A DNA stretch of 64,000 bases from an uncultured Planctomycetota bacterium (GTDB taxonomy: Bacteria > Planctomycetota > Planctomycetia > Gemmatales > Gemmataceae): NCBI GenBank assembly GCA_963849325.1, contig CAWKHF010000006.1, forward strand, positions 320,001 to 384,000. Reading direction: 5' to 3'. The notes under the pieces are model-generated. The model was given only the letters and a program-made list of their open reading frames with translations. It ran no database searches and was not told the DNA's origin. A program made the position numbers and the translations under genes. Of the stretch, positions 1 to 22,300 are shown piece by piece (the stretch's first letter is position 1; each line of letters starts with the position of its first letter).

Positions 1-216
1 AGCTTGCGCAACCATGATGGAATAACACTCCTTGCCGTCTTCTGTCTCCTTTCGCACATACAGTATTTTGGCATCCGCTTTGCCGATAAATTCATCTTTA
101 ATACGGCCCTCCACAACTGGGGGTAGATCGTTGATGGCGATCTCCTCGCTACTACCCTGCGTCTGCAACGTAATACGCAAGCACCCAATCGCAACCAGCA
201 GGCATTTGTATTTCAT
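1..216 (-). CDS. Secreted PepSY/BLIP-like protein, candidate immunity protein for the second toxin tip (runs off the window edge)
   Basis: Not in the ORF track; manual translation gives MKYKCLLVAIGCLRITLQTQGSSEEIAINDLPPVVEGRIKDEFIGKADAKILYVRKETEDGKECYSIMVAQA. It has a signal-like N-terminus, a 'DLPxxV...KExEDGK..Y' pattern like PepSY-like domains, and GAGGA upstream. Confidence 0.55.
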   Translation of the reverse strand, partial: MKYKCLLVAIGCLRITLQTQGSSEEIAINDLPPVVEGRIKDEFIGKADAKILYVRKETEDGKECYSIMVAQA

Positions 217-366
217 ATGGGAGTGATCCTCGCCGACATTCACGCCGGACTTTGCATCTATGACACAGAGGTTTCAATGAACTGCACGGTAAAGTTTGCT
301 ATCATAGGTCATCCCGTGAGGGCCGAGCTGGTCCCCGAGAGGGGAGCCAGACGCGCTCAGTCAACC

Positions 367-2880
367 TCATATAGGGTGAAAGAGATGGGGACGGCGGCCA
401 GGCCCAATTGGAGGGTTGAGTTTCAAATCTTCCAGCGTCTCATTCCGTCCGGTCATGAGTAGATTAAGTCTTTCCGTCCACTTCTCATTTACCTCCTCAT
501 CCACGAAAAAGTGGTCCGAACCACCGACATGACCATCGTCGAGGTAGAAAACGAACGAATTATTGGTTTTGCTTTTAGGGTCATCAGAGACAGTAATTTT
601 TAGGGCCTCATGGCCACCGGATTTCAATCCGATATCCCAAGTCTTCCACCCATAATGGGAAACCTTTATGCCATCCTGCAAGGCCGCCGGAAGCATGTCT
701 TTGATTTTCGGATAAATCTCATCCACCCACTGGTTGCAATGCACAAATAGCCCACAGGCACGGTACCATTTAAACTGCGAGGTCATCAATTAGGCGATGC
801 AGATGCTCTTTAATTCTGGCCTTTTTCTCAGCAGGCCAGGAAAGTTGGTCAACCTTCGCATCGACAGCGGCCTTAGCGTCTTTTGCAGTTGGGGGCGCAT
901 CGCTGAAAGGCGCCCCGAACGGCGAATAGTCGAGGTTGCCCGGCGTGCCCTTGGCCGCATTGGAGACATTGGCAAAATCCTGCATCAAGCTGTAGCGGTC
1001 CTGTCCGATCTCGCTCTGGCTGAGGCTGCCGCTCTTCCGGTCACCCTTCTCCTGCAAGCTGTAACTACTACTGCCCGTGCCGGTGGGCAGCGTGGCGCCA
1101 GGGCCGCTGTCCTGCAAGTTGTAGCTGCCGCTGCCCGTCACACTGCGCTGGAACGTCTGATCCGGCGCATTGCCCGTCTCGCTCACCGTCGTGCTGTCGT
1201 TGCCTTGCAACGTCTCACTGTAACCGCCGCCCCCATTCTGACCCGACTCCGCCAGCGTGTAGCCGTCGCTGCCCGCCAAGCCACGACTGTAGCTGCCGGT
1301 GATGCTGTTGCCGCTCTCCTGGCCATTGCTGCTAACGCCACCCGTCTCCGTCAAACTATAATTGTTGCTGCCCACCGCCGTCTGCGTCAAGCTGTAACCG
1401 TCGCCATTGCTCAACTGCGACGTGTAGGCCCCCGTGAAGTCGTTGCCCGTCCGCTGCTCCGTACTCGACGGCGAATCGCTCGCGCTGGTCGTCACCACAC
1501 CGTTGGCATCCGAGTAACTATCCGCCAGCGTCGTCGTGCCGTTGCTGTCCGTCGTCGTGTCATCCTCACCCGTCACGCTGTTGCCCGACTCCTGGATGGA
1601 GGCACTGGACTGGCTCGTCTCCGTGTACGAGGCCAGGCTGGTACTCGTACTAGTCGTGTCCTGGATGGTCACGCTGCTGCTGTCGCTGACCGAACCGTTG
1701 AAATCGCCCGTGTCCGCATCGTCATCCTGCTGCTGCGACTGCGTATCCGTGCTCAACTCCGTCAGACGTGGATGAGCCGGCACTGTTGCTGGCCGTCTGG
1801 GTGAGGTTGTCGCTGCTGGTCGTGTTGTTGGTGATGCTGTCCACGCTCTGGTAGAAGTTGCTCTGGTCCTGGCCGCTGCCGCTGGTCGTCTGCGTGTCCT
1901 GCAACGTGTAGTCGGTGCCCGTGGCTAGATATTGACCGCTCTCCGTCGTGGTCAGCGTGTCGCTGCTGGTCGTGGTCGAGTTGCCGTTGCCCGTATCGTC
2001 GTCGCCGCTGTCCTGCGTCGTCGCCGTGCTCGAATCGCTGACCGTCTGATGGTAACTGTCGTTGCCATCGCCGCCCGCCTTGGCCGTCGTGCTCACCGTC
2101 GTCACCGTCACCGAACCGCTGTCGCTGCCGGTGAAATCATTGTCCGCGTCACTGTCGGAGTTGCTGACCGTGGTTGTCGTCGTCGCCGAGAACGAACCAC
2201 GCGAATCCGTGCCGCTCTCCGTCGTCGTCGAAGTGCCGCCGCCGCCGCCGCTGACGCTGTCGGCACCCGTGAACCCATTGGCCACGATGGTGGCGGTGTC
2301 GCTGCCGCTGTCCTGCGTCGTACCGGCGTCGCTCAAGCCATCATCGCTGCTGTCATCGCTCTCCGTATCGCTGTAATTATCGCTGACGGTCGTCGTCTGG
2401 TCGCCGGTAAACAAGTTCTCCGTCACCGTCGTCGTGCTGCTGTCGCTGCTGCTGTCGCTGCTGTCCTCGTCGTCGCCATCGTCCGAGGAATCCTCCGTGC
2501 TCGTGTCCGTGTTGCTATCCAGGATCGTCGTTGTCAGATTGCCCAGGATGGTATTGCCCATCACCGTCGCCGTGCTGCTGTCCGTGCTCGTGTCGGTGCT
2601 GCTGTCGCTCAACGACTGGTCCGTCGTCGTGTCCTGGAGCACGGCACGCAGTTGATCCTGCACCGTCGCCGTCAGCGTGCCGGTAAACAGGTTCTCCACC
2701 CAGCTCGTCGTCGCCGTGTCGCTGCCCTGTGACGTGCTACCGTCGCTGCTCGTCTGATTGGTGCTATACGCTCCACTGTTGCGATCAAACGTCGTCGAAC
2801 TGGTCAACGTGTACGAATCGCTACTGCTGTCGCCCTTACCACCGCTCTCCTCGTTGTCGTTGGCCTACGCGCTGCTGCCG
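367..2880 (-). pseudogene. Orphan toxin cassette: start-less copy of the Ser/Thr-rich carrier C-terminus fused to a distinct C-terminal domain with a possible Cys-His-Asp triad
   Basis: ORFs 1722..2807, 770..1783 and 367..789 join across frameshifts. About 900-2860 is near-identical to parts of 4150-7260. The sequence diverges after GNLDYSPFGAPFSD; the tip contains HCNQW...GGHEALKI...FYLDDG. Confidence 0.7.
900..2860. repeat. Long direct repeat of the carrier C-terminal region (partner copy 4150-7260; this copy lacks ~0.9 kb corresponding to ~6245-7130)
   Basis: For example, 'TTSSDTLTTTESG.YLATGTDYTLQDTQTTSGSGQDQSNFYQSVDSIT' is encoded with nearly identical DNA at ~1830-1975 and ~5340-5485. 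Confidence 0.9.
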
Positions 2881-3010
2881 CCCGTCAGTATCAGGCTGTC
2901 CCGTAGTTGTTGTCCGAGGCATTGATCGTCCGTATCCATGCATAAATAGGTGTTCGAACGGCGTCATCTTCACGGCAAGCATCGCTGGCGCGTCACTATA
3001 AGTTCTGAGA

Positions 3011-3502
3011 TTACGGCCATCGGGGAAAACTACAGCCTTCGCCAAGGAACACGATGCGTAACAGTACCGGGTGACAGTCAGCGGTCACTTCCTGCTGCTC
3101 TAAGGTGTCTCCTACAGCGAATAACATCTCAAGTCCATCAAGAAAAAGCTGTAATTGGTCCGAAATCATCACATCGGCATAGCTCCACAAGAGTGCGACA
3201 CGTTTTTCCGGCCGCTCCATTAGTACTTGCCAAATGACATCGGAAGCAGCATCCCACGAGGACAACCCGCCAGTTGCGTGGTCCGAAATCTCAAAGCAGC
3301 CAACAAGCGCCGCAAGTAAAGATCTCTTATCTTTTACACCAGCTGAATTGAGAGCATAGAGTCTGAATCCCTGGGCTTCAAGTTCCAATCGGACGGCATG
3401 AAGCGAACCGGAAGAGACGCAGACAGCACGGAACGAGCCAAGACAATCTGCCGACAGATGCTCTGACCAGGAATTCTCCATGATATTACCCAAAAAAGGC
3501 AC
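3011..3502 (-). CDS. Barstar-family RNase inhibitor (immunity protein)
   Basis: Barstar-like pattern 'LNSAGVKDKRSLLAALVGCFEI...SSWDAASDVIW...VALLW'; low GC; immediately downstream of an RNase domain. Confidence 0.75.
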   Translation of the reverse strand: MPFLGNIMENSWSEHLSADCLGSFRAVCVSSGSLHAVRLELEAQGFRLYALNSAGVKDKRSLLAALVGCFEISDHATGGLSSWDAASDVIWQVLMERPEKRVALLWSYADVMISDQLQLFLDGLEMLFAVGDTLEQQEVTADCHPVLLRIVFLGEGCSFPRWP

Positions 3503-3525
3503 TATAGGTAGTTTTACGGTCGGTG

Positions 3526-3860
3526 TTATTTGGTCGTACCGACATGCACAAACGGCGGATTCCCCGATTGTCCGTAGTGCGTTGTCGTAGTGTAGACGTT
3601 CCCATCTGATCCGATGACGAGGCGATTAGCGCCCCACTTCGTCGTGTCCCCTGGATTCTTCGGCAAGTAGTACTCCTTGTACGTTATCGGTTTCCCGGCA
3701 GCGTCTACCTTGGGCAGATTCCCTTCCAAATTCTTATGCTGAGAGACCCCATTTTCCACTCCAACCAGGCGGCTTCGTGCCATTGTTTATGTGGTTGACC
3801 GCCGTTTTTGCATCCCCAAGTACTTTTGCCGGGACAGGCGATGTTGACGGGTTCGGGATC
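3526..3860 (-). other. Barnase/RNase Sa/T1-superfamily toxin domain
   Basis: HKNLEGNLP...YKEYY...GANRLVIGSDGNVYTTTTHY keeps the Glu, Arg and His catalytic pattern of microbial guanyl-specific RNases. Confidence 0.8.
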
Positions 3861-6800
3861 GGCGCACCTGTCTTTGGTGACACTGGCCCCTTTGGTGCCC
3901 GCCCTCGCTTCGCCATGTCGGCGGCTTTCTTCGCGGCCACCGTTCCAGCAGCGACGGTTCCCTCCGCCAGTAGCGCCGCGCCGCGCCAGCGGCGGCACCG
4001 GGTAGTCCGGCCACCGCATCCTCGGAAGGCGATCGGGGAGGTGCCATATGCTCGTTGGGCCGCGTGGGTGCCTGCCGGGAGACGCTCCAGGGCCAAGCAG
4101 ATACCATCCGGCGGCGGCACCGATAAGGACGAACGGCCAAATGTCACTGTACGGTTCCCCAAATGGCGAGTAATCGAGGTTGCCTGGACCAGCGCCAGGT
4201 GCCGCGTTGGAGACATTGATGAAACCCTGCAGCAGGCTGTAACGATCCTGGCCGGTCTCGGTCTGGCTGAGGCTGCCGCTCTTCCAATCGCCACTCTCCT
4301 GCAAGCTGTAGCTGTTGCTGCCCGGACCACTCGCCAGCGTAGCACCAAGGCCACTATCTTGTAGACTGTAGCTGCCGCTGCCCGTCACACTGCGCTGAAA
4401 AGTCTGGTCGGGCGTGTTCCCCGTCTCGCTCAGCGTGTTCGTCTCGTTGCCTTGCAACGTCTGGCTGTAGCCACCGCCCGGCGCCTGACCCGTCTCCACC
4501 ATTGTATAACCAGCGGTCCTGTCCGATCTCGCTCTGGCTCAGGCTGCCGCTCTTCCAGTCACCCTTCTCCTGCAAGCTGTAACTACTACTGCCCGTGCCG
4601 GTGGGCAGCGTGGCCCGGGGCCGCTGTCCTGCAAGTTGTAGCTGCCGCTGCCCGTCACACTGCGCTGGAAAGTCTGATCCGGCGAATTGCCCGTCTCGCT
4701 CAGCGTCGTGCTGTCGTTGCCTTGCAACGTCTCACTGTAACCGCCGCCCGACGACCCGACTCCGCCAGCGTGTAGCCGTCGCTGCCCGACAGGCCAAGAC
4801 TGTAGCGCCCGTGACACCGTTGCCGCTCTCCTGGCCGGTGCTACTGGCGCCACCTGACTCTCAAAGGCTATAGCTGTTGCTGCCCGTTGTCGTCTGCGTC
4901 AGGCTGTAGTTGTCGCCGCTGTTCAGCTGCGTCGTGTAACTGCCGGTGAAGTCATTGCCCGTCCGCTGCTCCGTACTCGACGGCGAATCGCTCGCGCTGG
5001 TCGTCACCACACCGTTGGCATCCGAATAGCTGTCCGCCAGCGTCGTCGTGCCGTTGCTGTTCGTCGTCGTGTCATCCTCACCCGTCACACTGTTGCCCGA
5101 CTCCTGGGTGGAGGCACTGGACTGGCTGGTTTCGGTGTAGGAGGCCAGGCTGGACGCCGTGCGGGTCGTGTCCTGGATGGTCACGCTGCTGCTGTCGCTG
5201 ACCGAACCGTTGAAATCGCCCGTGTCCTCATCGTCATCCTGCTGCTGCGACTGCGTATCCGTGCTCGACTCCGTCAGCGTGGACGAGCCGGCACTGTTGC
5301 TGGCCGTCTGGGTGAGGTTGTCGCTGCTGGTCGTGTTGGTGGTGATGCTGTCCACGCTCTGGTAGAAGTTGCTCTGGTCCTGGCCGCTGCCACTGGTCGT
5401 CTGCGTGTCCTGCAACGTGTAGTCGGTGCCCGTGGCTAGGTATTCACCGCTCTCCGTCGTGGTCAGCGTGTCGCTGCTGGTCGTGGTCGAGTTGCCGTTG
5501 CCCGTATCGTCGTCGCCACTGTCCTGCGTCGTCACCGCGTTGGAATCCAGGACCGTCTGTGTATAGCTGTCGTTGCCGTCGCCGCCCTGCTTGGTTGTAC
5601 TGCTCACCGTCGTCACCGTCACCGCGCCGCTGTCACTGCCGCTGTAGTCGTTGCCCGCAGCGCTGTCGCTGCTGCTGACCGTGGTCGTCGTCGTCGCCGT
5701 GAACGAACCCCGCGAATCGGTGCCGCTGTCGATGCTGGTGGACGTGCCCGAACCGCTGCCGCTGACGCTGTCGGCACCCGTGAACACATTGGCGATCAGC
5801 GTGGCACTGCTGCTGCCGCTATCTGTCGTCGTACCGTCGTCGCTCAGACCGTCATCGCTGCTGTCGTCCGTCTCCGTGTCGCTGGACGTATCGCTGCTGG
5901 TCGCCGTCTCGACGCCGGTGAATTGGTTCACGCTCAGCGTCGTCGTGCCATTGTCCGTGCTCGTGTCCGTGCTGTCGTCGTCGTCGCCGTCGTCGGACGA
6001 GTCGTCACTGCTGTTGTCCGTGCTGCTGTCCGTGGTCGTCGCCGTCAGACTGCCCATCACCGCGTTGCCCGTCACCGTCGTCGTCGCCTTGTCCGTGCTC
6101 GTGTCCGTGAGGAGGTCGCTGAGCGACTGGTCCGTCGTCGTGCTCTGGAGCAAGGCGCTGACTTGATCTTGCTCCGTCGCCGTCAGCACGCCGGTGAACA
6201 GGTTCTGGTTCCAGGTGGTCGTCGCCGCGTCGCTGCCCTGCGACGTACTGTCGTCCGTCAACGTCTGCGCCGTCTCGTCGTCCGTGCCGTTGTCCGTCAG
6301 CGTATCATTGGTCATGCCCAAGACCGCGCCCGTGAACAGGTTCACGTTCTCCGTCGTCATCGCATTGTCCGTGCTCTGGTCGGTGCGGGTGTCGGTCGGG
6401 GCCTCGGGCAACTCGACAACCGTGTCATCCGTGCTGTTGTCGCTGTCGCTGTCCGTGATCGCCTCCGTCACGTTGCCCGAGTACAGGTTGCCGTTGGTCG
6501 TCGTGCTGGCGTTGTCCGTGCTCGTGTCCGTGCCGCTGTCCGCAAGCGCCTGGTCCGTCGTCGTGCCGCTGCCCGACGACGACGACTGCTCTGACGCATT
6601 CTCCGACAACACACCCGACAGCAGGTTCAGGGTCCAGTTGGCCGTGTTGCTGTCCGTGCCCTGCGATGTGCTCGACGACTGCAAACCCTGGTCCGTCGTA
6701 TCGTCGTCCTCCGTGTCGCTGTCGCCGTCGCTTTCCAAACCCGACTCCGTACCGCCCGCCAAGTCCTCCGTCAGCGTCACCGTGGCGCTGGCGTTGCCCA

Positions 6801-9800
6801 CGTCCGTGTCGCTGTCCGCTTCGCTCTGATCGCTGTCGCTGTCCTGCTCCGAAAACGAGCTGCTGTTCGTCGTCGTCACCGTCTGGGTGCCGCTGAGCAC
6901 GTTGGCGACGATTTGCGCTGTCGTGTTGCCGCCGGTCCACTCCGTGAGGCTGTCGCTGGCCGTCTGGTTGCTCGTGCTCTCTTGCAGTGACGTGCCGCCG
7001 CTGCCCGACGACGACGACGACACCTTGCCCGTCCACACGTTGCCGTTGATCGTCGCCGTCGCGTCCTCACCGCCCGAGACCGTACTGCTATCCTGATACG
7101 TCTGGTCGTCCTCGGTGTCCGTCTCGCTGTCGCCGTCGCTGCCCGTCTGATCGGTGGTGTACGCCCCACTGTTGCGATCGAACGTCGTCGAGTTGGTCAA
7201 CACCGACGAATCGCTGCCGGTCGTGCTGTCGCCGGCCGTCTCCTCGTTGCCGTTGGCCTGCACGCTGGACGTGCCCGACTCCGACAGGGACTCCGTGTAG
7301 TCGCCCGCCTCCGACTCCTCGACCGAGCGTGTCCAACTGTCGCTGCCGGTCGTCGTCGTGCTCGAACCGCCGCCGGCGTTGGTCGCGGTCTTGGTGGCGT
7401 TGTCGCTGTCGCTGCCCGTCTCGCTGCCCATGAACTCGCCGCCGATGGTGCCGCCGCCGCCCAGGAAGGTGTTGACCGTCCGCGTGTCCGTTTGCACGTA
7501 TTGGCCGCCGCTGTCCTGGCCGGTCGTCGTCGTCACCGTCGTCACGTTGTTGGTCAGGCTGCCGCCGTAGCCGTCGCTGATGAAGTTGCCGCTCATCTGC
7601 GTCGTCAGTCCGCCGGTTTGCGTCTGACTGTCGCTGAAGCTGCCGCCCGAACCCGTGCCGTTGTCTTGCACGCTCAGGTTGACGCCGTCGGTCTCGATCC
7701 AGGAGAAGTCGCCCGTGTCGCCCTCGCCGGTGCCCTGCACACTGACGTTGTTGTTGCCGGTCTCGCTGCCGCTGACGTAGCTGGACAGGTCGTCGCTCTC
7801 CACCGAGCCACTGACGGCGTCGCTGCCGTTGGCGCTGCTGGCGAAGCTGCCCTCGGTAAACACGCTGGGCGTATCGCTGCCGGAAGCCGAGACGCCGAAG
7901 GTCAAGGTCACGTTGTCCAGGGTGGTCAGCGAGCCGGTCGGCGTGTACAGCGTCTTTTGCAACTGGTAATTCAACTCGCCGTTGGTGGTGGCGGTGTAGG
8001 TGCCGGTGTTGGCGTCCAGTCCGCCGGTCTCGAAGTCGCTGGAGGAGAGGTTGCTGGCCTGGTAGGTGAGGCCGCCGAGGCTGGCGGATTGGATTTGCGT
8101 GTCGTCGGTCAGGTCGAGGACGCGGCCGAAGCTGACGCCGGCGCCGACGGCCTGGAAGAGGGTGTCGGTGACCTGGATGGCGAGGACGTACGGTCCTTGC
8201 AGCAGGTAGGTGTGGCTGCCGATAATGTCGAGTCCGCCGTTGGCATTGGCCTGGACTTGTCCGCCGGAGGTGGTGCCGTCGCCCCAGAAGATGACGGCGT
8301 TGTAGGCGCTGGCGTCGTGGAAGGGGTTGGTGATGGTGGCGACGGTGCCGGAGAATTGTTGTCCTTCGATGGCGGCGAAGGCGGTGCCGCCGACATCGGG
8401 TTCTTCGTAGATGGTCGTGGTGGCGACGGAGGGAGAACCGAGGGTGGCGTTGCTGGCGCCACTGAGGACCACGGCGAAGGCGTCGCTGGGTTCGTCCTCG
8501 TCGCTGCCGCTGCCGTCGTCGAGGATGGGCACGGTGAAGCCTTCGCTGGTCTGGCCGGGAGCGAAGGTCAAGGTGCCGTTGGTGGGGGTATAGTCTTCGC
8601 CGCCGATGGCCGATATGTCGCTGGTGGCATAGTCCACGGTCACGGTTTGGCTGGCGGAGCCGCTCAAGGTGACGGTGACACTGGCCGGCCCCTCGGTCTC
8701 GGACACGGTGTAGGTGGGCGAACCGAACTGCACCGTCGGCGTGGGTGTAGGCGTGGGCGTGGGCGTGCTGTCTTGCGGGAGGGCCACGGGGGCCAGCGCG
8801 GTCGTGCCCGTGCGGGTGCCCGTGGGGTGGCTCACGACCGGGTGGAACGACGCGCTGCCAGCATCCTCGTCGCCGTCGCTCTCGTCCAGAAGGGTGACGG
8901 TCAGGCCGTGGCTGCTAAGGTCCGGCGTCAAGGTCGGGCGGCTGTTGATGATGGTCGCGCTGGTGCCCGCCGTGGCCGTCGGCGTGGCCGTCGGCGTGGG
9001 CGTCGCCGTGGGCGTTGGCGTCGGTGTGGGCGTGAGTATCGAAGGAGCTGTGTTGCTGGAGAGAACCGTGCTCGTACGGGTGTTCGTCGCTGTCGGCGTG
9101 GCCGTCGGCGTCGCCGGAGACGTGGGGGTCGGCGTGGGCATCGGCGCCGGCGGGAGCGTCGAAGGAGTTGTGTTGCTGGGGAGGGCCGTGCTCGTACGGG
9201 CGTTCGTCGCCGTCGGCGTGGCCGGGTATGTGGACGCGGCCCCTGCCGTCAGGCCGGTGGGCGCCGACAGGCTGCTCCGACTCGGCAACGACAGTGTGTT
9301 GGACGACGGCAGCGTCGGCATGTCCCCGGCGAACGGACTGCCAGGCAGCGCGAGGCCCGTCCCGGTCAGTTCGCCCAGGCTCGGCAGCGTGGGCGTACCG
9401 GGGAGGCCGCCGGAGAGGTTCGGTAGGCTCGGCTTACTCAGACTGCCGTGAGGCGGCGTCGCCGGAGTCGTGCTGCCTGGGTGCGGCGTGGATGGCAGGG
9501 CCGAGGTGGAACCCGACGGGGTTCCGATGCTGGCGTTGCCGACCGAGGGCGGAACGCCCGAAGCCGTGGACGCCCCGGACCCGCTGCCACTGCCACCGGC
9601 CGACGCCGAACACGGTCGCAGAGTTGCCCGCGGCCGCGTTGCTGGGAATGCCTGCGCCCGCAGACGGTGGCGCTGCCGCCGACGCCGAGGCCAGTTGCGG
9701 CAGCGACGGCAGGTTGCTGTGGCCGCCACCGCCGCCGCCGTTGCCGTTACCCCCGCCAATGCCCGCCGTACTGCTGCCGCCGGGAGCACCGCCGCCCCCG

Positions 9801-10372
9801 CCGCCCACGTTGTTCTTGTTGTCCACCGGCGGCGGCGGAGAAGTCGGTCGCCGCGTCGGCGGCGGCGACAGGTCGAGATCGTCCGACGATGCCGACGGCT
9901 GCGAGGGAGGCGTGTCGTCGCGGACGCTGGCCGCGGACGTGATCGGCAGGGGCATCCCTTGCCCCGGATGTCCAGACGACGAGGCGTGTTCGCCCAACAG
10001 CCAGCTCCAGTCCGCCGACGAACCCGTCGCCAGCACCACTTCCTGCTGCGCACCATCTGGCGGCGTGGCGGCGGCCACGGTGGTCTGCGGTTGGGGTTGG
10101 GTCGGCGCGGCGAGGGCGTCGGCCGGGGCAGAGTCGGCGGCCGCGTGCCAGGCGGGCACGAGCAAGGCCGTCAGGGTCTCGCCGGGCAGAGCACGCTCCT
10201 CCAGGGCCAGCAATTCCAGCCGCACCGGAGGACGAGGGATGCGGACGAGCGGGCCCCGCCAGCGGCCATACAGGCGACGAGGCCAGCGCAAGGCTCGGAG
10301 CAAACCGACCGTGGTCCGACGCACGTGCCAGCGAGCCCACCGCGTCCACCCGTAGCGCAGCCAGCGTCTCAT
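3526..10372 (-). CDS. Giant secreted Ser/Thr/Asp-rich protein (export motif, PT repeats, Calx-beta, Ig/PKD-like domain) with a C-terminal microbial-RNase toxin; several frameshifts
   Basis: N-terminus in ORF 9434..10372 (PPVRLELLALEERALP); body in 4861..10056; continues through 4539..4853, 4354..4575, 3705..4502, 3734..4354 and 3526..3783. Calx-beta at ~8400-8735 (VQFGSPTYTVSE...VTVDYATSD...GEDY...GTLTFAPGQT). An 'IFWGDGT...SHTY' Ig-like module follows. Confidence 0.75.
8735..9225 (-). repeat. Pro-Thr (PT/ATPT) coding tandem repeats
   Basis: Runs of PTPTPT and ATPTATPT, plus a duplicated 'ATN.RTST.L.SNT.PS' unit. Confidence 0.85.
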
Positions 10373-10529: not shown

Positions 10530-11069
10530 TCAGCCCTCGTCATAGTCCCAGATGACTCCCTGTCCGGTGCCGTCGCCCCGGAAGCGGAGGGTGCCGGCCG
10601 GCAGACTGCGATTGAGGTTCTTGATGGTCTCGCGCAGACGCCGCCGGGCCTCTTCCTCTCCCTCGCCGGCCGCCCGCGGCAGCGGATCGTCGCTGTGCTG
10701 CGGCCGCCAGCCCTGCTCCTGGAAGACATCGAGCAACCGGGTCTGATAGGGAGCCGGCTGGCGAAAGTCCTTGACCAGGACGTGCCCCAGCCAGAGCCGG
10801 CGGCTCTGGGGCTCCCAGCGTGGCAACGGGCGACGCGGACGCCGGACCTTGCGGTCCTGCCGCGCTCGCGTCCGTAGCCGCCGCAGATAGGCGACCCCGG
10901 CCGCCGTCAAGAGCGGTTGGCCGCGCGCTTGGGAGCGGGCGTGGGCCCGGAGCAGTTCCGCGTAAGCCCGCTCTGTCGAGGCGGGAAACAGCGGAAGTGT
11001 AGTCGGACGACGATCGGGGAGAGGAGGGGACACAACGGCCTCCGGGTTTTGGGATGCAAGAAGAGACAA
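10530..11069 (-). CDS. Putative DNA-binding protein with a C-terminal winged-helix-like region
   Basis: 'PRWEPQSRRLWLG..LVKDFRQPA...LLDVFQEQGW....DDPL...RLRETIKNLN...RFRGDGTGQGVIW' resembles an OmpR-type effector layout. The start codon is uncertain. Confidence 0.5.
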   Translation of the reverse strand: MSLLASQNPEAVVSPPLPDRRPTTLPLFPASTERAYAELLRAHARSQARGQPLLTAAGVAYLRRLRTRARQDRKVRRPRRPLPRWEPQSRRLWLGHVLVKDFRQPAPYQTRLLDVFQEQGWRPQHSDDPLPRAAGEGEEEARRRLRETIKNLNRSLPAGTLRFRGDGTGQGVIWDYDEG

Positions 11070-12592: not shown

Positions 12593-15500
12593 TCACGGAG
12601 CGGGCGGATCGGCGCCGGCATAGGACTTTTCCTCGATCAGGTCGGAGCCGCACAGGGCGTTCAGGCGGCGTTTGAGTCCGGCCCGCCGGTCGTTGAGACG
12701 GTAGACGGAACGAGCCAGCTCGACAAAATCCGAGCCGAAGTCCTGCCGCTCTTCGCAGCGACGCAACTTGTCTTCCACCTGCCACAGTTGTTCGTTGACT
12801 TCCTTGAGTTGGCAAAGCAGCGGGTTCAGTTCGGTCGGTTCGCGCAAGGACCGCGCCCGCGCCGCCTGCAACGCACCCAACTCGACGCAGACGTGCTCGC
12901 GCTTGATAGCATCGGTGAGGCGTACCCGCTTGATCTCCAAGATGGTGATCTTGTCCAACAGCTCGCCGGGGGCGATCTCCACTACCAGCGGCTGACGCAG
13001 GGCCGCATGGGCCTGGCGGACGCGAACCGCTGCGGCGACGCGAACGAAGACCTCGTCCCAGTCGCCCCAGCGTCTTTGGCGGAACAGACGCAGGGTCGGA
13101 TACCAGGGACTGTCCTCGCGGTCCAGCAGCCAACGCCAGTCCCGCGCAACGGGCAAGACGAGCCAGACCGGCACGCCGAGGCGCCGGCCAGGTGAGCGAT
13201 GGCGGTGTCGGAGGTGACCACCAAGTCGAGGTGCTGCATCAGGGCGGCAGTGTCCATGAAAGCGCCGCCGGACTCGTCCAGCCGCTCCGTCCAGTCCAGC
13301 ACGTTCCATTCGGCCGCCACCGCCGCCAACTGCTCACGGCCTGGACCCTTCTGCAAGCTCAAAAGGCGCACGCCGGGGAGGCGGGCCAGCGGCTCGAAAT
13401 GCTTCAGCGGCAGGGAGCGGTGCTTGTCGCCAGCGTATTTGCTGCTGCCCTGCCAGGCGATGCCGACCTTGAAGCCGGAGACGGCGGCCAGTTCCGCACC
13501 CCAGCGCTCGATCCGCTGCGGGTCGGCGGACAGATAAGGTACGTCGGCGGGCACCGTCTCCAGCGTGGTATGAAAGAGGCCGGGCAGACTCAACAGCGGC
13601 GCCTGTACGTCGAACTCCGGCAGCGGCGCGCCGCCGGGCAGCAACTGGTCAATGCCCGGACAACGCCGCAGTAAGGGCACCAGCGCCGGCTGCACCTCGG
13701 CCAGCACCACGCCGCCGCGGGCCTGGACAAGGGCCGCATAGCGGATGAACTGCAAGGTGTCGCCCAGACCCTGCTCCGCATACAACAAGATCCTCTTCCC
13801 CTCCAGCGGGCCGCCGTCCCAACGCGGCTTTGCCAACGAACGCCGTGCCGCTCGGGCGCAACTGCCAACGCCACTCGTACTCCGGCCAGCCACGCGGAAA
13901 GTCGCCGCACAACAGCCACGCCAAGGCCAGGTTCTTGTGCGTGTCGGCCTGGTGCGGGTCCAGCCGGATCGACTCCTGGTAGCACGGCAGCGCCTCCTTC
14001 AGGCGGCCTTGCTGCTCCAGCGATACGCCCAGGTTGTTGTGGGCGGGAGCGTGATTGGCCTGGCAGCGGATGCTGGCGCGGAAGCACACCTCGGCCTCGG
14101 CCGGCCGGCCCTGCTCGATGAGGGTAATGCCCAAATGATTGTGCAGTGGACCCGAATCGGGCTGCCGCGCCAGGGCGAGGCGATAGCAGTCCTCCGCCGC
14201 TGTCAGCCGTCCCAGCCGGCGCAGCGCATCGCCCCGGCCATAAAGGGCTTCCGTCGCGTTGGGCCGTTGTCGCAAGGCTTCCTCGAAGCAGGCGTCGGCT
14301 TCTTCCAGCTCTCCCTGCTGCAAGAGCGCGCGTCCCAGTTGCAACCGCGTCTCCGTCTGCTCCGGCCGCAGCCGCAACGCCAGGCGATAACTGGCCACCG
14401 CCTCGGCCCACTTGCCTTGCCGGCCTCGTTCCGCCCCCAGAGTGACATAACCCGACGGCGTATCGCGCTGGCCGCGCAGGGCCTGCTCGTAGTGCGGGGC
14501 CGCTCCGCGGCGGTCGCCGAGCTTGTCCAGGGCGACGGCCAGGTTGTAGTGGGCTAGGCGAAAATCGGGTTGCCGCGCCAACGCCTGCCGGTAGTGGTCG
14601 CAGGCCGCCCGCGTTTCTCCCAGGGCAGCCAGCACCACGCCGAGGTTGTTGTGCGTCGCGGCCAGGCCCGGCTTGAGCGTCAAGGCTTGCTCGTAGCAGG
14701 CGCGGGCCTCGGTCAACTCGCCCTGCCGCTGCAGCGCCTCGCCCAGATTGTTCAGCGCCTCGGCGTAACGGGGCCGCAGACGCAACGCCTGGCGGTAGAC
14801 GCGGACGGCCTCGGCCAGTTGGCCCTGATGGGCCAGGGCCACGCCCAGATTGTTGCATGTCGGCGCCGAGTCCGGCTGATGCTGCAAGGATAGCCGCAGG
14901 TAGCCGATGGCCTCGGTCCAGCGGCCCTGGCGGCACAACTGCCGGCCCTGGCGAGCCAAGGTGCTGGCGTCCGCAGTTGGAGGGGCCGCCGCCTGACCAT
15001 TGCCGCCGGGACGCTGCCGCCGCAACTCGTCGGCCAGGCGAGCAAAGACCTCGTCCCAGTCCCCCCAGCGTCTTTGGCGGAACAACCGCAGGGTCGGATA
15101 CCACGGACTGTCCTCGCGGTGCAGCAGCCAACGCCAGTCCGGCGCAAACGGTAGGGCGAGCCAAACCGGCACGCCGAGAGCTCCGGCCAGATGGGCGACA
15201 GCGCGTATCGCAGCTGACCACCAGGTCCAGGTGCTTCATCAGGGCGGCGGTGTCCAAGAAGCGCCGCCCGACTCGTCCAGCCGCTCCGCCCAATCCACGA
15301 CGCCCCAGTCTTGCGCCACCATTGCCAACTGCTCGCGGCCATGCCCCTTCTGCAAGCTGACCAGCCGCACCCCCGGCACAGCCGCCAAGGCCGCGAAGTG
15401 CGCCAAGAGGATGGAGCGATGACGGTCGTCGGGGTAGTGGGGATCGCCCTGCCAGGCGATGCCTACCTTGAAACCGGGCACGCCCCGCAACTCCGCGCCC

Positions 15501-17985
15501 AGCGCTCGATCCGTTGCGGATCGGCGGCCAGGTAGGGCACGTCGGCGGGCACCGTCTCCAGCGTGGTATGAAAAAGACCGGGTAAGCTCAGCAAGGATGC
15601 CTGCACATCAAAGTCGGGCAAGGCGGCACCGGCGGGCAGCACGTGGTCGATGCTTGGACAGGAACGTAACAGCGGCGCCAGCGCTGGCTGGACCTCGGTC
15701 AGGACCACGCCGCCGTGCTGCCGCACCAGGGAGACGTAACGGACCAGGTGCAAGGTATCGCCCAGCCCATGCTCGGCGTACAGCAGAATGGTCCGGCCGT
15801 CCAGCGGCTCACCCTGCCAACGCGGCTGCGACCAGGCACGTGGCCCAGCCTCTTGGTTCCGGCCGTGTCGTTCATACTCCGGCCAGCCACGCACGAAATC
15901 ACCGCGTAACAGCCAGGCCCAGGCCCGGTTGGCCCGCGCCGCGGCGAAATCGGGCCGCAGGCGTAAGGCTTCGTCGTAGGCGGCCAGCGCCGCCTCCAGG
16001 TTCCCTTGCTTGAGCCGGACGATGCCCAGGTTGTTGTACCCTTCGGCGGAGCGGGGATGGCGACGGAGCGTCTGCTGATAGAGGGCCGCCGCCTCGTCCA
16101 GCTGCCCCTGCTGGATCAAGGCCTCCCCATCGTTGTTGCTGGCTGGGGGCGGTTGCGGCGCGGATGGCACCGCTTCCGCCGGCCGCTGTCGTCGCAACTC
16201 ACCGGCCAGCCGGGCGAAGACCTCATCCCAGTCGCCCCAGCGTTGCTGGCGGAACAGGCGCAGGGTCGGATACCACGGGCTGTCCCCCCGCTCCCGCAGC
16301 CAACGCCAGTCGCAGGCCGCCGGCAGTACGAGCCAAACCGGCACGCCGAGAGCGCCGGCCAGGTGAGCGATGGCGGTGTCGGAGGTGACCATCAGGTCGA
16401 GGTGCTGCATCAGGGCGGCAGTGTCCATGAAAGCGCCGCCGGACTCGTCCAGCCGCTCCGTCCAGTCCAGCACGTTCCATTCGGCCGCCACCGCCGCCAA
16501 CTGCTCACGGCCTGGACCCTTCTGCAAGCTCAAAAGGCGCACGCCGGGGAGGCGGGCCAGCGGCTCGAAATGCTTCAGGGGGATGGAGCGGTGGCGGTCA
16601 TCGCGGTAGGTGGGACTACCCTGCCAGGCGATGCCGATCTTGAAGCCGGAGACGGTGGCCAACTCCGCGCCCCAGCGCTCCATCCGTTGCGGATCGGCGG
16701 ACAAATAAGGTACGTCGGCGGGCACCGTCTCCAGCGTGGTATGAAAGAGGCCGGGCAGACTCAACAGCGGCGCCTGTACGTCGAACTCCGGCAGCGGCGC
16801 GCCGCCGGGCAGCAACTGGTCGATGCCTCGGCAGGACCGCAACAGCGGCACCAGCGCCGGCTGCACCTCGGCCAGCACCACGCCGCCGCGGGCCTGGACC
16901 AGCCGCGCATAGCGGATGAACTGCAGGGTGTCGCCCAAGCCCTGCTCCGCGTACAACAGGATCGTCCGACCCTCCAGCTCGCTCCCATCCCAACGCGGCT
17001 GTGCCCCCGAACGCCGCGTGAAGTCCTTGGTCCGCCAACGCCATTCATATTCCGGCCAACCCTGCTCGAAGTCGCCACGCAACAGCCAGGCCAGGGCACG
17101 ATTGCAATGGGCGTCGGCGTAGTCCGGCTTGAGCCGCAACGCCTCCTCGTAAGCCGACAAGGCCGCGGCCACGTCGCCCTGGCGAACGCGGACGATGGCC
17201 AAGTTGTTGTACGCCTCCGCGTAAGACGAGTTGAGCCGCAACGCCTGCTGCAAGGACTCGGCCGCCTCGCCCAGCTTTCCTTGCTGCCGCAGGGCGTTGC
17301 CCAGGTTATTGTGGGCCTCGGGGTAGTCCGGCTTCCGACGCAGAGCGCGGCGATAGCAGGCGACGGCCTCGTCCAGCCGCCGCTGCCCGGCCAGGGCCAC
17401 GCCCAAGTTATTGTGCGCCTCGGCCGAATGCGGCTGGCGTCGCAACGCCTGCTGATAGACGGCGGCTGCCTCGGCCAGGTGGCCCTGCTCGGCCAAGGCC
17501 ACACCCAGGTTGCCCTGCGCCTCGACGTGCTCCGGGCAAGCACGCAGGGCTTGGCGGAACGCCTCGGCGGCCTGCGCCGGCCGGCCTAGCGACAGCAGGG
17601 TGACGCCCAGGTTGTTGCACGTATCGGCCGTTTGCGGCTGGAGTTGCAAGGCCTGCTCGTAGCTGGTCACCGCTTCTTCCAGGCGTCCCAGGCGGCGCAG
17701 GGCGTTGCCGCGGTTGTGGTAGGCGTGGGCGTAATCGGGTTGTCGCTTCAGGGCGCGCTCGTAGCAGTCGAGGGCCTCGGCGTGGCAGCCTTGCTCGGCG
17801 AGGATGACGCCCAGGTTGTTGCACAGTTCAGCCTGTTCGGGCTGTGCCGCCAGCGCTTGCTCCAGGCAGCCACGCGCTTCGTCGAGACGGCCCTGGCGGA
17901 ACAAGGTCAGGGCGCGTTGGCGCGGCCCTGCGGTGGTTGACTCCGCTGCCGGCGCTGGGGTGGGTTTGGACACGCGAGGTTGCAT
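12593..17985 (-). CDS. Multimodular protein: three (TPR array + GT9-like glycosyltransferase) modules plus a C-terminal DUF6165-like domain; frameshifted
   Basis: Many TPRs (NNLGVAL...). Three copies of '(EQ/EH)GLGDTL..IRY...GIAWQG...DTAALM.HLDL...DT...HLAGA.G.PVW...DWRW...DSPWYPTLRLFRQ'. C-terminus 'GELLDKITILEIK...FVELARSVY..ND.R...IEEKSY'. RBS and ATG at 17985. Frameshifts near 15500, 15265, 15200, 13850 and 13185. Confidence 0.8.
13190..13790. repeat. Near-identical intragenic repeat of the GT9 module (partner ~16360-16960)
   Basis: Long identical DNA stretches such as 'gactcgtccagccgctccgtccagtccagcacgttccattcggccgccaccgccgccaactgctcacgg' occur at both sites. Confidence 0.9.
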
Positions 17986-18242
17986 GACGGACTCCTGCGC
18001 TATCGAGACAGCGGATAGCGATGAATGAGGAGAGCCGAGCCTCCTCGATGCCGCCTCAATCCGGTGCCTCCGTTGGAGGCTTCGTTGCGGACAGAGGGCG
18101 GTCGCTGGTTTGGGCGTCGGGGCGAAGGGATGCAGGCCGGTCGGGCGCTGCTTGCCGCCAGCCGAGTTGATGGGCCATCTCTCCCAGCCCCACGAACACA
18201 CGCCGCCCCTGCTCCCCAGCGCCGGCGTGCCGGAACCAGTTG

Positions 18243-18842
18243 TCAAACAGCCCCGCCTGCCGTAGGGCCGCGACGCGAAAGGCTGCCCAGTGACCCGCCG
18301 GTGTCCAGCCGCCCGGACGCCCGTCGCGGACGAGAAACGGCACACCTCGATACCACGTCTGTGCGCAAGAATTCGACCTCGCCGGGCGGGTAATCGTTCC
18401 ACAGCACGGGGCCGACGACATCCACGCCTGGCTGCAGCCTGGACGACAACTCCGACCACCAGCCGTCCTCCGGAGGCGTATCCTCATCAATGCAGACCAC
18501 GTATTCGCTTCGGAAGGGCAGGTCGCACCACAGCCAACGCAGTATCACCGCCAGAGGAAATCGGCGTGGGAAGCACCAGCAAGCGAACGGCAGGCCGGAG
18601 GAGGTGCTGCCGCGGAAGCGTTCGACGCCTTCGGGCAGGCGGGCATACTCCAGGACGCGGCCTTCAGAACTGAGCCGGCCCAGGGCATAGTGTCCCTCCG
18701 GAGAGGATGCGGCCAGCCCCAAGCGTAATTCCAGGTCGTTGGGCGGCATGGCCTCCAGGACGCGATCCAGCCAACATCGCCAGGCGGCGGAGTGTCCCTG
18801 GACAGGGCACAGGCAAAGAGTGGCGCGAGGTCCGTCGGGCAT
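18243..18842 (-). CDS. Hypothetical protein, possibly a degenerate GT-A (family 2-like) fragment
   Basis: 'SEYVVCIDED...WW..L...VDVVG' resembles the DxD region of GT2 proteins; lies upstream of the TPR-GT gene. Confidence 0.3.
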   Translation of the reverse strand: MPDGPRATLCLCPVQGHSAAWRCWLDRVLEAMPPNDLELRLGLAASSPEGHYALGRLSSEGRVLEYARLPEGVERFRGSTSSGLPFACWCFPRRFPLAVILRWLWCDLPFRSEYVVCIDEDTPPEDGWWSELSSRLQPGVDVVGPVLWNDYPPGEVEFLRTDVVSRCAVSRPRRASGRLDTGGSLGSLSRRGPTAGGAV

Positions 18843-19385: not shown

Positions 19386-22300
19386 TCACGGCAGGTCTGG
19401 CCCCTGGTCCTGGCGTTGTCGCTCCAGGGCAATGCGTTCGCGGAAAGACATTGGCGGCTTGCCGGTTGAATCCTCCGGCGCTGCCCCCGGCAACACCTCC
19501 CCAGCCCCCCATTCGCCATCCGTCTCAACCGCTTGATCCGATACGGGATGTGCCTCTTGCCGGCGTCGGATGCGGGCGGTGACAGGTTCCTCGGCGGATG
19601 AATGCTTCTGTCGGGCGCGCTGCGGCGTCGCCTCGATGGTGTTGGCGGCTTTGAGCGCCTTGATCCTGTCTGCCAGCGCGGAGGTAGTCGGCCCGCGTTC
19701 TTCGCCAGACTCGTGCCCCGTCGCCGACAGTTTGACCTTGAGCCGGTCACGCAGCTCCGTCAGTTCATTGAGATACTGGTCGTGCGGGAAGGGCTTGCCC
19801 AGGCGGGCCTGGTAGTCGCGGAGCTGCGACTCGGCGATGGAAAGGTCTTGGCGGACGCGGACGCATTCGGAGCCATAGCCGCCAGCCAGTCGTTCCAGGG
19901 CGTTGAGGACGGCACGCGGCCCCTGGTGCTCCCGCGACAGCGTGGCTTGGCGGGTGATCGCGCCTTCGAGGTACACGTCGGGCGGGAATTGCGGATGCAG
20001 GACGAGGCCAAAGCGCAAGCCCCGATAGGTGCCGAGTGGCACGCGGGTCGTATCGCGGACGTTGCGTGGCAGGTGGTCGAGTTGATCGGCCAGGACACTC
20101 GGCGCGTCCTCGCGTGACCAGGGGCGCTTACCGAGTGTGATCGGGTCGCTGGCGTGGGCCGTGGCGGTCGCCTCGTCGGCGGTGAGCTTCGACAGCCGTT
20201 CATGGAGGCTGTCGATGGTGCTGGGCAAATCGCGCACGCTGCGGCGGGCGACGTATTGCTCGTCCAGGTGGTTCTTGTTCAGGAGGTTGAGGCGTTGCAG
20301 CTCGGCATCGGCCTCGGCCAGCGTCAGCACGGCCGGGTTGCCCGAGGCAATCGCCTTGACCTCGGCGTAGGAAAGTTCCTGGCCGCCAATGTCCTCGGCC
20401 CGGCGAGCGGCGTTGTCGCCGGTGATGACCTGCGCGATGAACCGGGCCTTGGTTTCCAGGGCTTGCCACATATAGGCGTCGAAGGAACCTTCCGTGACGT
20501 AGCGGTAGATCGCCACTTCCTCGTTTTCGTTTCCTTGCCGCAGGATGCGGCCTTCGCGTTGTTCCACCTCGGCCGGCTTCCACGGGGCGTCAAGATGGTG
20601 TAGCGCCACCAGCCGTTTCTGAACATTCGTGCCGGTGCCCATTTTCTGGGTGCTGCCGATCAGGACACGCACCGAGCCTTGCCGTACCTTCTCGAAGAGC
20701 GCCTGTTTCTTGGCGTCGGATTCGGCCTCGCCGATGGCGGCGATCTGCTCGCGGGGAATGCCGTGGGCGATGAGTTTTTTGATAATGTCCTGGTAGGGCG
20801 AGTACCCCCAGGGAGTAGGATTGACGCCCATGTCGGCGAAGATCATTTGCGTGCCGCGCGTCGCGGCGGTCTTCTTCCAGATGGAGGCGACATTCTCAAC
20901 GAGGCGGTTGACCTTCGATTCCGGAAAATCGGGGGCCGTGGGCGACAACATCCTGGCGTCGGTGGCGAGCTTGCGGCCGTCGGTGGTGATGTTGAGGGCA
21001 TTGTCAACCCGGGGATCGACTTTCTGCGAACGTAACTGCTCGTAGCGTTCCACCAGTTCCTGTTGAAGCGCGTGCTGCTCCTCGGACATCGGACAGGCAA
21101 CGACGATCGGCTTGCCGCCTTCCAGGCTGGGCCGGGGCAGGTCCAGCATTTCCGCCGTCTGCACGTCGGCGAAGGCCCGGAACATCTGTTGGAGTTCCGG
21201 CAGGTTGGTGAAGCGGGCGAACCGGCTGCGCGGCCGGAGCGAGGCGCCGTCGGGGGAAATCTCCATCGTGTCGATCACCTCGCCGAAGGTGGCCGCCCAG
21301 GCGTCGAAATGCTCCAGGCCGCGTGCCTGGAGTCCTTCGGGGTCGAGGAAACGCTGCATGGTGTACATCTCGACCATCGTGTTGGAGATCGGCGTGCCGG
21401 TGGCGAACGTCACTCCGTGGCCGGGGTGCTGCTCATCAAGGTATCGCGCCTTCATGTACACGTCGAAGGCCCGCTCCGAGCCGCCGGTCTGGATGCCGGC
21501 GACGCGCTCCATCTTGGTCGGCGTCTCCAGGTTCTTGAAGTAGTGGGCCTCGTCGATGAAGATGTGATCGACGCCGAGTTCATCAAAGACCAGCCCGTCA
21601 TCCTTCTTGTCCTCGGCCAGCAAGTCCTTCAGCCGTTCGGCCCTCGCGGCCTTCTGCTTCTCAATGGTCTTGATGAGGTTGCGGTTGGCGCCCCGGTCGG
21701 CCGCATGTTCCCGCAGCAACTCGTCATATTCGGCGATCTGCTCGGTCAGGAACTTTTCCTGGTAATCCCGCGACATGCCGATGCGCTCGAAGCTGCTGTG
21801 GGTGACGATGATGCCGTCCCATTCGCCGCTGGCGATCTTGGCGGTGAGCATCTTGCGCCGCTCCCTGGTCAGGTCTTCCTTGGCGGCCACCAGCAGCCGG
21901 GCATTGGGATAGAGTTGCATGAATTCGCGGGCAAATTGCTCCAGCAGGTGATTGGGGACCACGTACATCGGCTTCTTGATGAGGCCGGCCTGCTTCATCT
22001 TCATGCCGGTGGCGGTCATCGTAAAGGTCTTGCCAGCCCCGACGGCGTGGGCCAGCAGCGTGTTGCCCGAACTCATGCCGCGCCAGACGGCATCGTCCTG
22101 GTGGGGCCGCAGCCGGATGGTCTGGTTCATGCCGGGGAAGTCGAGGTGCGAGCCGTCGAACAGGCGCGGACGCAAATTGTTGTAGATGTCGTTGTACGTT
22201 CGCACGAGCCGCTCGGTGCGTCCGGGATCGGAGAAGACCCAGGAGCGGAATCGTTCCTTGATAAGCTTTTGCTTCTCGCGGGCGGCCATCGTGGCTTCCT

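Follow-up and report, generated by a model that had tools for sequence, protein, structure and literature searches.

A stretch of 64,000 nt from an uncultured bacterium, C6:320001-384000 in an assembly of 8.16 Mb in 14 contigs (hereafter the window), very probably carries a polymorphic toxin system for interbacterial competition, borne by a probable planctomycete. Judged from sequence, the locus has what generally marks such systems: a conserved carrier with unrelated C-terminal domains past a sharp junction, an immunity-type gene directly downstream, and start-less cassettes that share the junction region. The evidence comprises domain identities, a modular architecture, the sharp junction with its variable tips, neighbours from immunity families, arrays of orphan cassettes, and the sharing of a tip with an Rhs protein. 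Every feature of the toxin locus lies on the minus strand. A preliminary description, made from the letters of the window, had proposed a polymorphic toxin system, and the proposal held: the C-termini are not invariant, immunity-type neighbours are present, and no Rhs or CDI family was matched. The principle of a toxin, an immunity gene and an orphan cassette is already well known; the carrier, the module that precedes the tip and the junction motif appear undescribed.

The full-length toxin gene of the window (gene 1, 3526..10372) is predicted to encode a giant exported protein that comprises, from N- to C-terminus, a lineage-typical LE.LE.R region, an adhesin-type Calx-beta domain, a long hydrophilic beta-hairpin sheet, a pre-toxin module of ~300 aa and a variable tip. 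The gene had been described as a single full-length gene. The span 3526-10372 does encode one giant protein, but it is read in at least seven frame pieces (9434-10372, 4861-10170, 4539-4898, 4354-4731, 3705-4538, 3734-4384 and 3526-3786), with an in-frame TGA at 4861. The start is an ATG at 10372, and the first frame, 9434-10372, begins MRRWLRYGW. Within this frame, at 10184..10222, we found the N-terminal motif noted earlier, RLELLALEERALP, which is of the LE.LE.R.[LV][LP] type. A motif of this kind marks planctomycete extracellular proteins, and this one would direct export of the carrier. The pattern LE.R.[LVM][LPM] occurred in the first 150 aa of 38 long open reading frames (ORFs) of the genome, as against 0-13 for four control patterns, and the hits have the extended form R...LE.LE[DE]R.[LV][LP]S in common. 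An N-terminus of the same kind begins a related gene on another contig (C4) and the homologous protein P0006. For the Pfam family PF07595 (Planc_extracel), no match in the genome reached the cut-off of 25.5 bits (best, 18.9 bits), and none of its 23 weak matches in the genome was a toxin N-terminus.

The main frame, 4861-10170, continues with a P/T-rich linker and then the Calx-beta domain (~8401..8739; PF03160, E 1.6e-22, 80.2 bits), which had been recognised in the preliminary description. An Ig-like domain claimed alongside it was not detected by Pfam; in its favour is a resemblance, seen by eye, of the stretch past the Calx-beta domain to part of P0006. The long T/S/D/G-rich stretch reported before is a repeat carrier of ~1,000 residues (4864..8100; 20% T, 18% S, 11.5% D and 11% G), recognised by its composition and by an N[LV][FLY][TS]G motif that recurs at a spacing of ~46 residues. 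Neither the repeat carrier nor the ~300-aa module matched any Pfam or NCBIfam model. The carrier has a GC content of 0.62-0.75 and the tips and downstream genes one of 0.48-0.52, a difference in the direction originally seen.

The pre-toxin module ends in a junction with the consensus PG[NH]hD[YF]SP.G.PF.DP, and this is where the variable tip starts. Gene 1 holds a first copy of the module at 4512..5400 (825/899 identities to the orphan cassette by blastn, or 92% of nt, with 13 gaps), which ends in GQDR without a junction, and a second copy of the module's last ~115 aa with the junction at 4158..4501, 79% identical in nt to the orphan module. The core of the junction, GNLDYSPFG, lies at 4158-4184 in gene 1 and at 914-940 in the orphan. 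Thus the last ~115 module residues stand in tandem in gene 1 (window 4158-4860), an arrangement that may be the scar of recombination or cassette replacement, or an assembly fault.

Six copies of GNLDY[SA]PFG are present in the genome, at two loci, and they are followed by unrelated in-frame tails of 47-327 aa. Four are on C6: gene 1 and the orphan in the window have one each, as do a full gene paralogous to gene 1 and a second orphan. These last two occupy C6:307-318 kb, so that the toxin system extends past the start of the window. The paralogue (C6:310448-318456) is 85% identical in nt to gene 1 over 4.8 kb. C4 carries the other two, in a full gene whose 3265-aa frame is intact and in one orphan. 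The two start-less orphans outside the window, at C6:307147-309162 and C4:439906-442032, were recognised by the shared junction region. Across the six modules, the 309 residues before the junction have a mean column identity of 79%, and the sequences after it are unrelated. No match to PT-HINT (PF07591) was found in the window pieces or in the other tips of the genome. A ParB-like identity for the tip of the second paralogue was considered and dropped, there being no Pfam match at E<=0.05. Two further observations concern these copies. A small ORF downstream of the paralogous toxin, C6:309152-309619, has S1 RNA-binding domains (PF00575, E 2e-14) and would be an unusual candidate immunity protein. 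At C4:442550-443487, the intact 3265-aa gene has 86 residues past the junction and a 234-aa ORF overlaps the gene end in another frame; the tip of this gene is probably split by an indel, like that of the window orphan.

The C-terminal tip of gene 1 (3529..4157) consists of a hydrophobic stretch, a linker and a barnase/binase-type RNase domain at ~3529-3851. The RNase had been called from the sequence by eye, and Pfam bears it out: the tip matched PF00545 (Ribonuclease) with E 7.3e-6 and 26.9 bits, above the curated cut-off of 24, over profile positions 38-92. It aligned to binase residues 55-103, the catalytic C-terminal half, including the catalytic Glu and His positions. A frame break falls between 3737 and 3786, and the N-terminal half of the RNase domain, in another frame, was judged by eye alone.

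Directly downstream lies the putative immunity gene, a divergent member of the barstar family (3011..3481 within ORF 3011-3502). Its likely start is the ATG at 3481, 44 nt past the toxin stop, because this is where the alignment of barstar-family members places it. The earlier designation, barstar-like, holds at the level of the family and not of the single sequence. Alone, ORF 3011-3502 matched PF01337 with E 0.027 and 14.9 bits, below the cut-off of 23.4. Among its 11 homologues, which share 43-70% identity with it, two carry a precomputed PF01337 assignment and one is named barstar in its source. When the family was scanned singly, 11 of the 12 aligned members matched Barstar at E<=0.1 (best, 1.6e-6).

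The orphan cassette of the window (367-2864 with its tip) comprises a start-less carrier C-terminus with a module (914..2864; frames 1722-2864 and 770-1924), which ends with the junction. As described before, this second copy (770-2864) lacks both an ATG and an N-terminus, and its tip is unrelated to that of gene 1. The frame 770-1924 runs for 47 residues past the junction and then stops. The small gene previously placed downstream of the orphan is not a separate gene. ORF 367-789 shares 67% identity with residues 688-805 of P0165, an 832-aa RHS-repeat protein (PF05593), and past the Rhs junction DPSGL of P0165 the counterparts of the 47-residue piece and of ORF 367-789 run on unbroken; P0166 is alike. 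Since both proteins span the two pieces without a break, the pieces form one tip domain of ~175 aa (367..913), split by a frame break near 773-789, with ORF 367-789 as its C-terminal part. The match to P0165 also means that the orphan tip is used by an Rhs carrier. A protein-atlas look-up of ORF 367-789 gave a best score of 0.80 and no lead. The next gene, which starts near 216 and runs out of the window (1..216; C6:319485-320273), has a lipoprotein-like N-terminus and weak matches to membrane-protein DUFs only; its position makes it the candidate for the orphan's immunity gene.

We then asked how the module is distributed outside this genome. A module profile searched against 1.84 billion proteins gave 259 cluster representatives at E<=1e-3, of which 179 remained at <=1e-10 and 73 at <=1e-30. 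The sequence extends to the end of the module in 138 of the 153 proteins fetched, and straight from the junction onwards these proteins diverge, with tails of 0-903 aa. Tabulating the C-termini, a check suggested with the preliminary description, thus showed them to be variable. Domains were scanned in all 114 homologues with tails of at least 80 aa, plus P0006 (115 in total). PT-HINT lies past the junction in 35 of the 114. The original statement that a Hint domain is absent is accordingly true of the copies in this genome, but not of the family. Homologue tips above the Pfam cut-off include GH-E, AHH, WHH, SsdA_C and DUF2380; matches below the cut-off were to EndoU, a second AHH, Peptidase_M91, PT-TG and Colicin-DNase. 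Named family members come from Stieleria sp. and from a Pirellulales bacterium, the latter protein bearing the NCBI name 'polymorphic toxin-type HINT domain-containing protein', and others from one Gemmatales metagenome-assembled genome (MAG) and one Planctomycetota MAG, in agreement with the planctomycete link drawn at the outset.

A metagenome scan with a 15-row module alignment yielded 27 loci; several contigs repeat the same sequence, so that the loci are not independent, and by our own count they represent ~17 distinct junction/tail types. In 23 of the 26 tabulated loci a same-strand ORF begins within 200 nt of the toxin stop, and in six it begins at the stop itself. Domain scans of 18 tails and 25 downstream ORFs gave several recognisable arrangements: a colicin E5 RNase tip with a 99-aa ORF and the beginning of a further module behind it (L035), a PT-HINT plus WHH tip followed by a SUKH plus ankyrin protein (L044), and a PT-HINT tip with a SuFu-family protein as the second ORF downstream (L038). 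The downstream genes, which were also to be checked, therefore include the barstar in the window and the SUKH plus ankyrin and SuFu proteins of metagenome relatives. One Planctomycetota MAG has, on a contig of 1.3 Mb, three cassettes in a row whose tips differ (L049:3555-9132). One of the cassettes is a remnant reduced to its junction; the other two are modules that lack a start, and one of these bears a GH-E tip. Small signal-peptide or membrane ORFs separate the cassettes.

These elements suggest how the system would work. The N-terminal region would take the carrier out of the cell, where it would be displayed on the surface, and the carrier would then deliver the toxin tip into a neighbouring target cell. 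The tip would be released by PT-HINT autoproteolysis in many relatives and, in gene 1, possibly at the conserved D-P of the junction. The released RNase of gene 1 would cleave RNA in the target cell, and the barstar-type protein encoded 44 nt downstream would shield the producer. The module of the start-less orphan, being 79-92% identical in nt to that of the full gene, could recombine with it and so replace the tip.

Several observations weigh against reading the locus as a functional toxin system. Most homologue tips match no Pfam family, and most toxin activities are thus unassigned. The module was found in none of 400 other sampled genomes of the phylum and in none of 40 relatives (10 of the same genus), many of which are fragmented assemblies; given these counts, the module is either patchily distributed or lost in fragmented assemblies. 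No secretion-system gene was identified by Pfam among the genes neighbouring the locus. Within 6.8 kb, gene 1 has at least six frame changes besides the in-frame TGA, and these could be real. Moreover, a GGCCGG site that lies between the N-terminal region and a G/S-rich linker is the point of a frame change in both gene 1 (~9585) and its paralogue (C6:317.6 kb), which may be a systematic sequencing error or a real inherited frameshift. The contigs of one public run (share 0.05) match short pieces of 5445-8947 and give three 33-nt matches, and these span no frame break.

The frame breaks raise the possibility that the locus is a decayed relic, in which gene 1 and its paralogue are true pseudogenes and only the immunity genes, and perhaps the intact C4 copy, still function. 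The number of breaks, the coincidence of one of them in the two paralogues and the open 3265-aa frame of the C4 paralogue, which indicates that not every long gene of the assembly is broken, all speak for decay. To place these breaks in context, we looked at genes that cannot be pseudogenes. At C1:334967-343005 and C5:217992-220918, the assembly breaks rpoB into four pieces, rpoC into four and dnaE into six; the pieces are read in different frames, and two of those of rpoB contain a TGA. The break density in these genes, ~1 per kb, equals that in gene 1; the frame breaks of gene 1 are therefore no evidence of decay. The sequence contexts of the breaks in the essential genes and in the toxin gene had no common motif. 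Same-genus assemblies with few contigs are 74-85% complete, versus mostly 91-97% (two at 82% and 64%) for fragmented short-read ones, a contrast expected of indel-rich long-read assemblies. The break shared by the paralogues, too, could be a context-specific systematic error. We consider a decayed locus unlikely, and because the assembly has ~1 indel per kb, the apparent pseudogenes of this genome need polishing before they are interpreted.

Structure prediction bears on what kind of carrier this is. The C-terminal 175 and 309 residues of the module were modelled confidently by AlphaFold, with mean predicted local distance difference test (pLDDT) scores of 84.6 and 79.1, respectively. The models have 8 and 12 antiparallel strands, most of them 14-20 residues long, arranged as a simple meander; a short helix and the disordered junction come after it. 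In a Foldseek search of the PDB, neither model had a match at E<=0.001. With VIA-align, the models matched arcs of outer-membrane barrels with Z 10-14.5 (FauA, Z 14.1, root-mean-square deviation 3.0 over 213 residues). We take the barrel matches for a shared beta-meander geometry and not for homology: the sequence is mostly S/T/G/N/Q, with only a two-residue hydrophobic stripe per strand, which does not suit a membrane barrel.

The same models could be taken to indicate a very divergent Rhs/YD-repeat toxin, whose beta-hairpins would be distant YD repeats that enclose the tip in a cocoon of the Rhs type. Besides the long antiparallel beta-meander predicted for the module, this explanation can draw on the occurrence of the orphan tip in an RHS-repeat protein and on one metagenome homologue whose tail begins DPSGLE directly past the junction (L021:1229-1260); these letters resemble the end of an Rhs core and may be left over from an Rhs toxin that supplied the tip and the junction at once. 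Tip sharing is, however, normal between unrelated carriers. RHS_repeat (PF05593) was matched neither by the window pieces at E<=0.01 nor by the 115 homologues at E<=0.001, and neither an RHS core nor the motif PxxxxDPxGL precedes the tips in this genome. The strands, at 16-20 residues, and the ~46-aa period also argue against it. For the two models, which cover 175 and 309 aa of the carrier, the structural matches are headed by the outer-membrane barrel arcs, with no Rhs or Tc chain in the top 50. We regard a hidden Rhs toxin as quite improbable. The preliminary description had likewise seen no Rhs, haemagglutinin, VENN or LXG features, and Pfam found none of these domains in the window pieces or the 115 homologues. 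For LXG and MafB-N, no Pfam match was obtained in the N-terminal piece or in the full-length homologue P0006.

Instead of a weapon, the gene might encode a giant surface-layer protein or adhesin whose secreted RNase serves nutrition, and its copies would then be ordinary paralogues. We consider this highly improbable: a Calx-beta domain with long hydrophilic repeats is typical of adhesins and many large proteins of this genome have the same N-terminal motif, but such a protein would leave unexplained the cassettes that lack a start and bear unrelated tips, the barstar-family gene 44 nt past the toxin, and the relatives with nuclease or deaminase toxin domains and SUKH or SuFu immunity genes.

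Within the polymorphic toxin reading that we prefer, a more specific proposal is tentative. The hydrophilic beta-meander carrier and its ~300-aa module might constitute a new, Planctomycetota-specific scaffold for toxin delivery, derived from neither Rhs nor CdiA. It would be exported by the lineage-specific LE.LE.R route, the carrier would then wrap the tip in a shell or else form a barrel-like conduit into the target envelope, and PF.DP would be the release site.

We searched the literature on polymorphic toxins of Planctomycetes/Planctomycetota, giant genes, PT-HINT and Gemmataceae Rhs and found no description of the carrier, supplementary files lying outside the search. The giant genes of planctomycetes appear in that literature without an assigned function, and we found in it no interbacterial weapon of planctomycetes. 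The accessible part of a 2026 preprint has nothing on the carrier. In the accessible part of Zhang et al. 2012 (PMC3482391), planctomycetes figure in the tables solely as one of the phyla with toxin and immunity domains, and the text contains none of six planctomycete genus names and nothing on the carrier; its supplements, outside the search, may list planctomycete architectures. Against this background, the locus offers part of the planctomycete giant genes a testable role, the delivery of swappable toxins, and extends the small set of polymorphic-toxin scaffolds by a further type of carrier. The junction motif and the module could be used as a search profile that leads to hundreds of new toxin tips and immunity genes, mostly without a known family.

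Other genes near the toxin locus may be described briefly. Upstream of gene 1 is an ORF at 10530..11069, of a family not recognised by Pfam, and a copy of it (C6:318463-319365) lies upstream of the paralogous toxin gene. This ORF, which ends in LRFRGDGTGQGVIWDYDE, is directly upstream of both full toxin genes of C6 and might encode a regulator or accessory factor. On the same strand and a few kb from the toxin locus are a 998-aa TPR-repeat protein (window 15466-18459) and a 1874-aa ORF with SNF2, ResIII and Helicase_C domains (19389-25010).

We compared the system with known ones. The tip and its neighbour are like barnase and barstar in that the tip matches PF00545 and aligns with binase, and the downstream gene belongs to a barstar-family cluster. 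The RNase here is the tail of a giant protein, whereas barnase is a free secreted enzyme, and the inhibitor here, of ~156 aa, is too divergent to pass Pfam alone. With Rhs/YD-repeat toxins the system shares a giant beta-rich repeat carrier, a sharp junction, polymorphic tips, orphan cassettes and one common tip (P0165). It differs from them in repeat period and strand length, in having no RHS_repeat, core or DPxGL junction, and in that no PAAR or VgrG context was seen. CdiA/CdiB systems resemble it in the great length of an exported protein that is like a filament, in a junction ahead of the toxin (VENN in their case), in their orphan cassettes and in the immunity gene that comes right after the toxin gene. 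Pfam scans of the window pieces, homologues and neighbouring genes, in contrast, gave no TPS domain, haemagglutinin repeats or VENN motif, and no CdiB/TpsB next to the locus.

The remaining comparison is with the PT-HINT class exported by Sec and the type II secretion system (PMC3482391). The system differs from this class in that the six copies of this genome are without HINT, and the carrier and module without a Pfam or NCBIfam model. The suggestion of an undescribed class stands in that last respect, but given the PT-HINT domains of the 35 homologues and the name that NCBI gives to one of the family, we do not regard it as a wholly new class. In those homologues PF07591 lies between the junction and the tip, and the class, as far as the accessible part of that paper describes it, is built on the same modular plan, in which an N-terminal part for export is followed by repeats, then by a pre-toxin region and last by a toxin that varies, with the immunity gene downstream of it.

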